Positions 1 through 3,000 of a stretch of DNA of 64,000 nucleotides are shown here, one piece after another. The first letter of the stretch is position 1; each line of letters starts with the position of its first letter. This stretch comes from Escherichia coli (GTDB taxonomy: Bacteria > Pseudomonadota > Gammaproteobacteria > Enterobacterales > Enterobacteriaceae): NCBI RefSeq assembly GCF_003991155.1, contig NZ_CP031295.1; one strand, 5' to 3'. Made by a program: the position numbers.

Positions 1-3000
1 CAACTTCTTGGTACAGAAATCCCGAAAATTACATGGGAAAAGATTGAGAGAAGTTTAACAGATGTTGAAGATGAAAAAACACTTCTTGTCCCATTTAAAG
101 CTGAAGGTCCGGAGGGTAAGAGAATGTATTATGGCATGTACCATTGTGAAGAGGGATATGTTGAATATGCGAATGACTAATACACTGTTATAAAGGCTGC
201 ATAAAAAGGCCGGAATCCCGGCCCTTATATTATCGCTTACCACTTTCTTTAATGTGAATTTCACCAGGAAGCAGTATCTGGTACTCTTTACCAGAAAACA
301 TCGCCCCGAGCCTTGTGAGCGACTCTCCGATGACGCCACGGTGAGTGCTGGCGTTAAAATCGTATTTATCATCATATGAACGAACAACGCCATTGTAAGT
401 CCAGGAGCCATTGGCAGAGATAGTTAAAGTACCTTCTGTTTTCAGTGTGATATTACCAAGATATGCACCGGTAATAACATTATAATCACCAGTGGCATGT
501 GTGAACTTTGTAGAAACAGGGAATGTACCTACTACACCAGATTTTATAATGTCTTTTATCTGATTAATTTTCATAGGGGAAATTTTAAGACCAATGTTGG
601 CGATATTAACGCTCCTTTCAGCGCCATTACCCCATAAATAGTGAGCAAGCGCCACAATTGGTGTAGTGACATTACCGCTCATTTGTTTCATATTCATTGA
701 GCGATAGTCATATTGACTTGGCGCTGGTTTTGAGAAGTGGTAAGCGTCATAAACGCTTATTCCAGGGTGAAGAACCAGATTTCGGTCGGCGTTACAGAAG
801 TAACCAATATTTGTCGATATGATCTGCAATGTGAGAGGGTTGCTAGCCCCATGTTTTTTGATGTAATCCTCAAGTTGAGTTAAAGCCTGAAGACACATGT
901 TTGGACTCTGGAAAAAACTATAAACAACCTGGACTAAAAGAGGTCCAGCACCAGGAACATGCGGTGCTGAAAGAGAAAATGCACCATTGCCATAACTTGG
1001 TAAGTTAGTTGATGGTGATGGTGCATGAACAGTTAAGGTTTCCATACATAACTCCTTATAAGTTAATAAGATAATAGAGTTCGCGGCTGGCTAACGCTTA
1101 CACCGGCGAACGAACCCCATGAGAGAGGCTCCCCATAACATTGTTTGCCGGATATGCCGTTAAAAATGGTAGGGAAGCACCTGAACTACCATATATAAGA
1201 TATATATCTGTACACTCCATTAAATACTGGAAATATATTGAGAACTCTGATATATAATCTATATATAAAAATACAAAAAGGTATATATATGACCAGCAAT
1301 AAAGATAAGAACAAGAAAGCAAACGAAATATTATATGCATTTTCCATAATCGGTATTATTCCATTAATGGCTATATTAATACTTCGGATAAATAATCCAT
1401 ATTCTCAAGTGCTGTACTACTTATATAATAAGGTTGCATTTCTCCCTTCTATTACATCATTGCATGATCCCGTCATGACAGCACTTATGTCAAACTACAA
1501 CAAGACAGCACCAGTTATGGGTATTCTCGTTTTTCTTTGCACATATAAGACAAGAGAAATCATAAAGCCAGTAACAAGAAAACTTGTTGTGCAATCCTGT
1601 TTCTGGGGGGCCGTTTTTTATGCCATTCTGATTTATATCACACTGTTCTATAATCTGGAACTAACAACAGCAGGTGGTTTTTTTAAATTATTATCTCATA
1701 ATGTCATCACTCTTTTTATTTTATACTGCTCCATTTACTTTACTGTTTTAACCATGACATATGCGATTTTACTGATGCCATTGCTTGTCATTAAATATTT
1801 TAAAGGGAGGCAGTAACACTGCCTTCCTTTTAATTATTTTATGATCTTGTGATTCAACTCATCAACAAATTTATCATCGATAAATGCACCAATAGCACCT
1901 GCAATAACTACGCCAACAAAACCAACAACTGTGGCCGGAAGACCAAAGGCTATAAGGGCCGAGCCTAATGTCAAAGAAAACAAACTAAGAGCTACAGCAG
2001 CTGGTTACGAACTTAATGGCCAGACTATTTATGTATTGCTCCTGTGGCACACACGAGAAAACAGGTAGATTGTGTGTGGGGACAACTTAACATAGCCTGC
2101 AGATATTAATTCTGGAACATTATTATCAGGCCAGATATTTTGCATTCCATTAAATAATCTTGTAGGAGATAAAATGAATTACGATGAAATAACGAAAATT
2201 ACCGCTGAACGTATTAGCGACTACATGACTGAAGCAGTTAATACAGACTCTATAGCCGTTGCGGAAATGTTTCATAACGCTGCATGGGGAGTGCGAACAT
2301 TGTGGTTTGAACTCGTCACAAAAATAGATATAGATATACATAAAAAGAACAGGTATGCGAGTTATGATCTTAGAAGGAAAATCGAAATGCAGCATGAAGA
2401 GTTTCAGAAAATGACAGAGCGTGAGCAAGTACCTTTATTGAAATCGCCAGAATGATGTTCAGCGACTTCGCCCAGGTATTTTCTTTCGCCCCTTTTATGC
2501 CCTGCCGGACATTGTATAAATGTAGGGCGGGCCGCTTGGAATTCGGAAAATAAACCACGTTAAGACTATTTTTTAGTCAAATGACTTTCAGGAATCGCCA
2601 GAATGGCGGGACAACAGCGGTTTTGGTGTCCGAAATCGTACAATTCTGAACATCTACGCAAGGGAATGTACGGAAGTAAGCCAAATGGTTATCGGACGGT
2701 AGGAGCATTTCGTACATCCTTTACGTTCAGTGAGTTAGCTGGCTTGGATGTAACCACTCGTTCAACTCAATTCTCTTGACGTGGGGAAATCCGTTTTCCA
2801 AGCGGACCCCTTATAGGGGGTGAGGGCCCCCTCCCCTTCACTCTTGACTATGTGAACGATAATCATTATCGTTAGTGTTTGTATGGTAATGGGATAGAAA
2901 GTAATGGGATAAAAAGTAATGGATAGAAAAAGAACAAAATTAGAGTTGTTATTTGCATTTATAATAAATGCCACCGCAATATATATTGCATTAGCTATAT

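Follow-up and report, generated by a model that had tools for sequence, protein, structure and literature searches.

A colicin-M-only derivative of the ColBM locus with a truncated colicin B gene on a ColV-type virulence plasmid of Escherichia coli

When a ColBM locus has lost most of its colicin B activity gene (cba) together with the SOS-controlled promoter of that gene, is colicin M still produced from the neighbouring cma gene, or does the plasmid merely keep a silent toxin gene along with its immunities? This question is raised by a stretch of Escherichia coli DNA of 64,000 nucleotides (contig NZ_CP031295.1; the whole of this stretch is referred to as the window), for which an earlier note, based on the sequence alone, had described a remnant of cba upstream of cma. 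The observation in that note was real and correctly placed; of its interpretation one half has stood, viz. that SOS control is gone, whereas the other half, viz. that colicin M is silent, has not. The locus is a colicin-M-only derivative of the ColBM bacteriocin locus, and it is carried on a conjugative IncF ColV-type virulence plasmid. The explanation that best accounts for the whole, and which we consider probable, is that cma in this derivative is weakly transcribed, independently of LexA, from cma-proximal DNA.

Gene content of the locus and the cba junction

The features of this region are as follows.

1..180, plus strand: cmi (colicin M immunity), 3' part with codons 59-117 and the stop (178-180), cut by the start of the window
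230..1045, minus strand: cma, the colicin M activity gene, intact, 271 aa (Pfam Colicin_M, PDB 2XMX, catalytic motif)
1046..1288, no single strand: cma-cbi intergenic region, with the presumed divergent cbi promoter and the only weak LexA-independent cma promoter activity that has experimental backing (gfp fusion)
1289..1816, plus strand: cbi (colicin B immunity), intact, 175 aa, orphan (Pfam Colicin_im; annotated in identical plasmids)
1802..1830, plus strand: terminator-like hairpin after cbi, between the convergent ends of cbi and cba, with a 13-pair stem followed by TAATTATTTT
1834..2003, minus strand: cba remnant, last 55 codons plus the stop (residues 457-511 of 511), lacking both a start context and a promoter
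2004..2068, plus strand: 3' remnant of a RelE/ParE-family toxin gene of IncF backbone, last 21 codons plus the stop (65 nt)
2069..2918, no strand: patchwork spacer from the junction to cvi, different sub-segments of which are matched by different records
~2527-2810, no strand: ~285-bp element bounded by imperfect inverted repeats of ~36 nt (GGGGTCCGCTTGGAAAACGG...CACGTCAAG)
2919..3155, plus strand: cvi (microcin V immunity), intact, annotated in identical plasmids
3133..3331, plus strand: cvaC, cut after codon 66 by IS1 (Pfam MccV positions 1-68 of 104 only)
3332-4099, oriented towards the ColBM locus: IS1, both ends located

The colicin M protein encoded in the window covers the whole of the Pfam Colicin_M profile (E=3.8e-155), is identical at 269 of 271 residues to crystallised colicin M (2XMX), and has an intact catalytic motif (DDKYDFNASTHR, residues 225-236); a full-length colicin M gene with both the Colicin_M domain and the catalytic DxYD...HR motif is thus present, as in a ColBM locus. 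Likewise as in a ColBM locus, cbi lies between cma and cba on the opposite strand, and its product matches Pfam Colicin_im over positions 1-138 of 138 (E=1.8e-63). An NCBIfam scan of all seven products gave no match, and Pfam was the informative resource instead. Of the colicin M immunity gene, downstream of cma and also on the opposite strand, codons 59-117 lie in the window; its translation there ends ...EGYVEYAND followed by the stop, and in pCREC-544_1, which is 100% identical over the region, a full cmi of 354 nt is annotated, of which nucleotide 175 corresponds to position 1 of the window. The statement in the earlier note that cmi, cma and cbi look intact therefore holds for cma and cbi (full Pfam coverage) but cannot be made from the window for cmi, of which 59 of the 117 codons are visible; cmi is complete in the 100%-identical plasmids. 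The persistence of both immunity genes, which that note had also claimed, is borne out.

The full-length gene for the pore-forming colicin B (511 aa), which a ColBM locus would carry, is absent. Translation of its remnant (window positions 1837-2001, minus strand) gives 55 aa, 52 of which (95%) are identical to residues 457-511 of colicin B; directly upstream there is an in-frame TAA (2007-2005), and PGAP labels the stub as a pseudogene ('colicin-B, incomplete, missing N-terminus'). The breakpoint was set by two parental alignments, viz. to p_STEC1585_2 (L001), which has a full ColBM locus, and to the IncF plasmid pJJ1887-4 (L002). At base level the homology to cba extends up to 2000-2003 and that to the RelE/ParE gene begins at 2004; neither alignment shows microhomology where the two meet. 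The alignment to full-length cba that had been proposed earlier thus places the breakpoint at 2003/2004, so that the remnant of ~56 codons at 1834..2004 was essentially right (55 codons plus the stop, to be exact), and so was the foreign DNA from ~2005. The part of cba that is missing amounts to 1366 of 1536 nt (456 codons) plus the upstream region, and a BLAST search for the missing 5' part and promoter across the whole 64 kb found no relocated copy. It follows directly from the sequence that production of colicin B is impossible.

On the other side of the join, the RelE/ParE stub corresponds to the end of a toxin gene of this family that is annotated on pJJ1887-4. The 5' part of this gene and its antitoxin gene were sought in the 64 kb and are absent, and no complete toxin-antitoxin module is therefore present there. 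As the cba and ParE stubs are both 3' ends pointing apart, neither of them brings a promoter towards cma. The junction also creates a predicted chimeric ORF of 45 codons (1931-2068, plus strand) with a GTG start, in which a part antisense to the cba stub is joined in frame to the last 21 ParE codons. One ancestral illegitimate recombination appears to have joined codon 457 of cba to the 3' end of the RelE/ParE toxin gene, and the same event would have removed 456 cba codons, the cba promoter and the double LexA operator.

The join is located ~0.9 kb from the microcin V immunity and structural genes, and the DNA between them is composite. Its first part is IncF backbone of ~450 bp, which runs from 2004 to ~2453 and contains the ParE stub and a 93-aa ORF (2174-2455) called by PGAP as a truncated hypothetical gene, and the match to canonical microcin V plasmids begins at 2754. 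Other plasmids have the segment corresponding to the ~285-bp element by itself; of this element, only the right 60 bp are present in canonical ColV plasmids. The inverted repeats of this element resemble Tn3-family termini, in which case it would be a miniature, transposase-less element. A simple two-parent model, in which the presumed parent was a ColV plasmid whose intact ParE gene directly adjoined cvi, was considered and found too simple, as 2004-2918 is itself a patchwork. This stretch is composed of at least three segments, each distributed differently among plasmids, and hence points to more than one rearrangement and should not be interpreted as the product of a single crossover between a ColBM and a ColV plasmid. 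Further to the right, PGAP describes the cvaC stub as 'colicin V, missing C-terminus'; with cvi intact beside it, the plasmid carries a second orphan immunity gene, and Cbi and Cvi have probably both been left as orphan immunities with promoters of their own. On the other side of the IS1 at 3332-4099 mig-14 is truncated, and a second IS1 copy is found in the same orientation at 9370-10137. The rest of the window contains, besides the truncated mig-14, an integrase gene, RepFIB, sitABCD, iucABCD-iutA, sopAB and the F tra region.

Distribution of the junction and closest known loci

The join at 2003/2004 could in principle have arisen by chance or in assembly, the plasmid having in reality a full cba. 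Against this, 297 PLSDB plasmids cover a 501-bp junction probe completely, and a 301-bp probe is covered in 311 RefSeq records, corresponding to 308 of the 5,426 complete E. coli genomes; the identical junction comes from many laboratories and many hosts, and cba 5' sequence is absent elsewhere in the window. An artefact, for which the general possibility of such errors can be cited, is on these grounds barely conceivable. Full-length cba together with its promoter, used as a probe on the same set of complete genomes, is covered in 134, and the cba-stub arrangement is therefore the majority form of the ColBM locus among sequenced E. coli. What the earlier note had treated as a possible curiosity is instead this majority form, known since 2009, and the arrangement of the cba stub and cma is an ordinary one: a common, published and PGAP-flagged form of the colicin B/M cluster. 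Since a publication of 2009 already covered both the structure and what follows from it, and PGAP flags the stub automatically, it carries little weight as a discovery. Its practical relevance is for genome-based bacteriocin typing: since the cba stub is more than twice as common as a working cba (308 vs 134 complete genomes), it will be incorrect to interpret a match to cbi or to the 3' end of cba as indicating a colicin B producer.

A sample of junction-bearing loci drawn along the ranking shows at least 99.9% identity over 1.9 kb, with humans, pigs, dogs and poultry as the sources. Although cma is annotated as intact in all of the sampled junction-bearing records (9 of 9), its intactness across some 300 records of a nearly clonal lineage tells little about selection. 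Variants of the region were also seen. The junction-bearing record NZ_CP151163.1 has an extra IS1A inside the region of cma, cbi and the stub, with cui (colicin U immunity) annotated nearby. In pUMNF18_IncFV (L010, 1432-2660), which has a full cba, an IS3-family element lies between cbi and cma, and in two poultry-associated plasmids (from chicken and chicken meat) IS1 is inserted within cba itself.

The closest known locus is the type described by Christenson & Gordon 2009 (Microbiology 155:1645), which, according to the passage of PMC6795089 that cites it, has a truncated cba adjoining a microcin V remnant. As characterised in the citing passages, this type shares with the window a complete cbi, a short 3' remnant of cba, intact cma and cmi, loss of the SOS box, and an adjacent microcin V remnant that consists of cvi plus a truncated cvaC (in the window, cvi at 2919-3155 and cvaC cut at 3331); in the features that the citing papers describe, no difference from the window was detected. 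An independent report (PMC6723558) also notes colicin M in the absence of colicin B, with a truncated cvaC directly adjoining. Compared with canonical ColBM loci (cmi-cma-cbi-cba with a double LexA operator, as in p_STEC1585_2 and pExPEC-XM), the order and orientations of the genes are the same and the nucleotide identity is 98.2-98.8% over cma-cbi and the 3' end of cba; the window, however, is without 1366 nt of cba, the promoter and the SOS boxes, has its own haplotype across the 85 bp that precede cma, and encodes a different Cma variant (WP_001312845, vs WP_000449473 in canonical ColBM). The canonical ColV operon cvaA-cvaB-cvaC-cvi (APEC IMT5155 p1) is 98.4% identical over 2754-3331, i.e. 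cvi and the 5' part of cvaC; in the window, however, cvaC is cut by IS1 at 3331/3332, and the annotation of the identical and near-identical plasmids shows neither cvaA nor cvaB across window positions 1-29000. Orphan immunity plasmids that keep heavily truncated toxin genes have been described (PMC12546727), and the window resembles them in having cbi and cvi beside toxin stubs and a single truncation that is kept across many plasmids, but it is unlike them in that one toxin (colicin M) and its immunity are still complete.

LexA operators and the expression of cma

The interpretation of this locus depends upon whether an SOS-controlled promoter remains. The window was scanned with a 20-mer LexA consensus, using the upstream region of full-length cba in p_STEC1585_2 as a positive control; in the control two overlapping SOS boxes were recovered (L001 5663-5682 and 5678-5697), whereas in window positions 1-3400 no LexA operator was found, the only hit being a poor one within cbi (1653-1672, 11/20) that full-length loci share. 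A search for CTGT-N8-ACAG with one mismatch allowed agrees in finding no LexA box near cma. A LexA operator at the activity-gene promoter, as in an SOS-regulated colicin operon, is thus absent from 1-3400, and the earlier note was correct on this point. The strict CTGT-N8-ACAG pattern on which it relied would, however, have missed the genuine cba boxes, since each of them has 1-2 core mismatches; the conclusion stands due to the tolerant scan and the BLAST check for the missing cba promoter, which together also confirm that the LexA-controlled cba promoter is gone from the window. The sole perfect CTGT-N8-ACAG in the 64 kb (5412-5427) is followed after 27 nt by a tyrosine recombinase ORF (5455-6194), beside RepFIB, and one such match per 64 kb is about the chance level; with one mismatch allowed there are 39 in the window vs 22.6 expected, a number reached in 0 of 100 shuffles.

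If cma depended entirely upon the cba promoter, then its transcription would have ceased with the loss of that promoter, and the plasmid would be keeping the immunities Cmi, Cbi and Cvi together with cma as an undecayed passenger. Consistent with such silence, neither a LexA box nor a promoter scoring above chance lies upstream of cma, reviews place the transcription of cma at the SOS promoter upstream of cba (PMC8469651), and in so young and clonal a lineage damage to an unused gene would not yet be visible. However, the wording of Kamensek et al. 2010 (PMC2994835) on this point is cautious ("seems to be", "it is presumed"), and in their work a 298-bp fragment without an SOS box or consensus promoter, when fused to gfp, gave uniform low-level expression, in contrast to the rare bright cells seen with LexA-controlled colicins. 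Their reverse primer maps exactly to 952-971 and the forward primer to 1233-1247 plus the following bases, its mismatch to the window being a 2-nt difference in an AT repeat; as the primers map to 952-1247, the fragment that was fused is entirely present in the window, although the reporter used the pCHAP1 allele and the window differs from sampled full-length alleles at ~5% of positions there. Measurable promoter activity thus resides in the cma-proximal 200 bp. Further, killing that depends on colicin M survived the insertion of a marker into cba, and in a cma mutant it was restored by a plasmid that carried cma and cmi alone (PMC9241499). According to the passage of PMC7772137 that cites Christenson & Gordon 2009, colicin M is still secreted without an SOS box, and cma is intact in every junction-bearing record sampled. 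In view of these results, the suggestion that colicin M may be silent is quite improbable, and the fortuitous or weak promoter offered as an alternative in the earlier note was the better half of its interpretation, being supported by the published gfp fusion.

With the cba promoter and the double LexA operator lost, cma is no longer under SOS control, and it is most likely transcribed at a low, uniform and LexA-independent level from the ~200 bp directly upstream, as the published fusion of the homologous fragment and the published secretion of colicin M, taken by analogy, suggest. Colicin M has no lysis gene, due to which constitutive low expression of it would be tolerable. Colicin M on these common ColV-type virulence plasmids is accordingly best treated as SOS-independent.

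The transcripts could also arise further away, in that cma may be expressed mainly by read-through from a fortuitous minus-strand promoter. The candidates within the cba remnant or antisense to cbi are TTGACA-16-TAGCCT (1974->1947), TTGATG-18-TAAAAT (1865->1836) and TTGACA-18-GATCAT (1493->1464), which are the best consensus matches on this strand, and outward transcription from the IS1 at 3332-4099, which is oriented towards the ColBM locus, is another; the hairpin at 1802-1830, when scanned on the minus strand, gave no terminator call. However, the scores of these sites (9.4-10.1) are what is expected of the best site in shuffled sequence (mean 10.2), the sites at 1493 and 1865 are also present in full-length loci and hence are not products of the junction, and the 298-bp proximal fragment is active on its own. 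Read-through is for these reasons unlikely, though it is the main rival to weak transcription from cma-proximal DNA, which is the most likely of the three; silence is likewise unlikely. Scans for sigma-70 promoters, both with a promoter-scanning tool and with our own position-weight matrix, on the minus strand from cma to IS1 found nothing above shuffled sequence (best score 10.1 vs a mean best score of 10.2), and at such chance-level scores no promoter is assignable from the sequence, so that the cma promoter is not located by this means. An Rfam scan of 1-8000 gave no family, and an attenuator or terminator upstream of cma was considered and rejected, since the hairpin at 1085-1112 is no stabler than in shuffles (z = -1.35).

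The haplotype upstream of cma

By inspection of the sequence, two candidate -10 elements of cma can be proposed, and no other -10-like hexamers lie close to the gene.

1076-1071, minus strand: TATTAT, putative cma -10 element
1073-1068, minus strand: TATCTT, putative cma -10 element

They precede the AAGGAG ribosome-binding site (1057-1052) and are 22-25 nt away from the cma ATG, on its upstream side; inspection revealed no -35 partner for either, and full-length loci carry TGtTATCTT at this position. Over the 256 bp that precede cma, there are five positions at which the letter in the window is shared by none of five sampled full-length loci. An 85-bp probe from this region (1046-1130) is matched in RefSeq exactly in 306 records, at 95-99% in 36 and at 90-95% in 110, and these counts track the 311 junction records and the 136 records with full cba; the exact haplotype is present in none of the five sampled full-length loci. 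Among these changes, the G->A at 1075 gives rise to the -10-like TATTAT hexamer 25 nt upstream of the cma ATG. If this change had occurred as a compensatory promoter-up mutation, it would have helped the SOS-less locus to make colicin M and to spread. However, the same change destroys the TGnTATCTT extended -10 motif of the full-length alleles, due to which its compensatory nature is ambiguous, and we regard such a role of the 1075A haplotype as doubtful. As the lineage is clonal, the association of haplotype and junction is accounted for by linkage, and selection need not be invoked.
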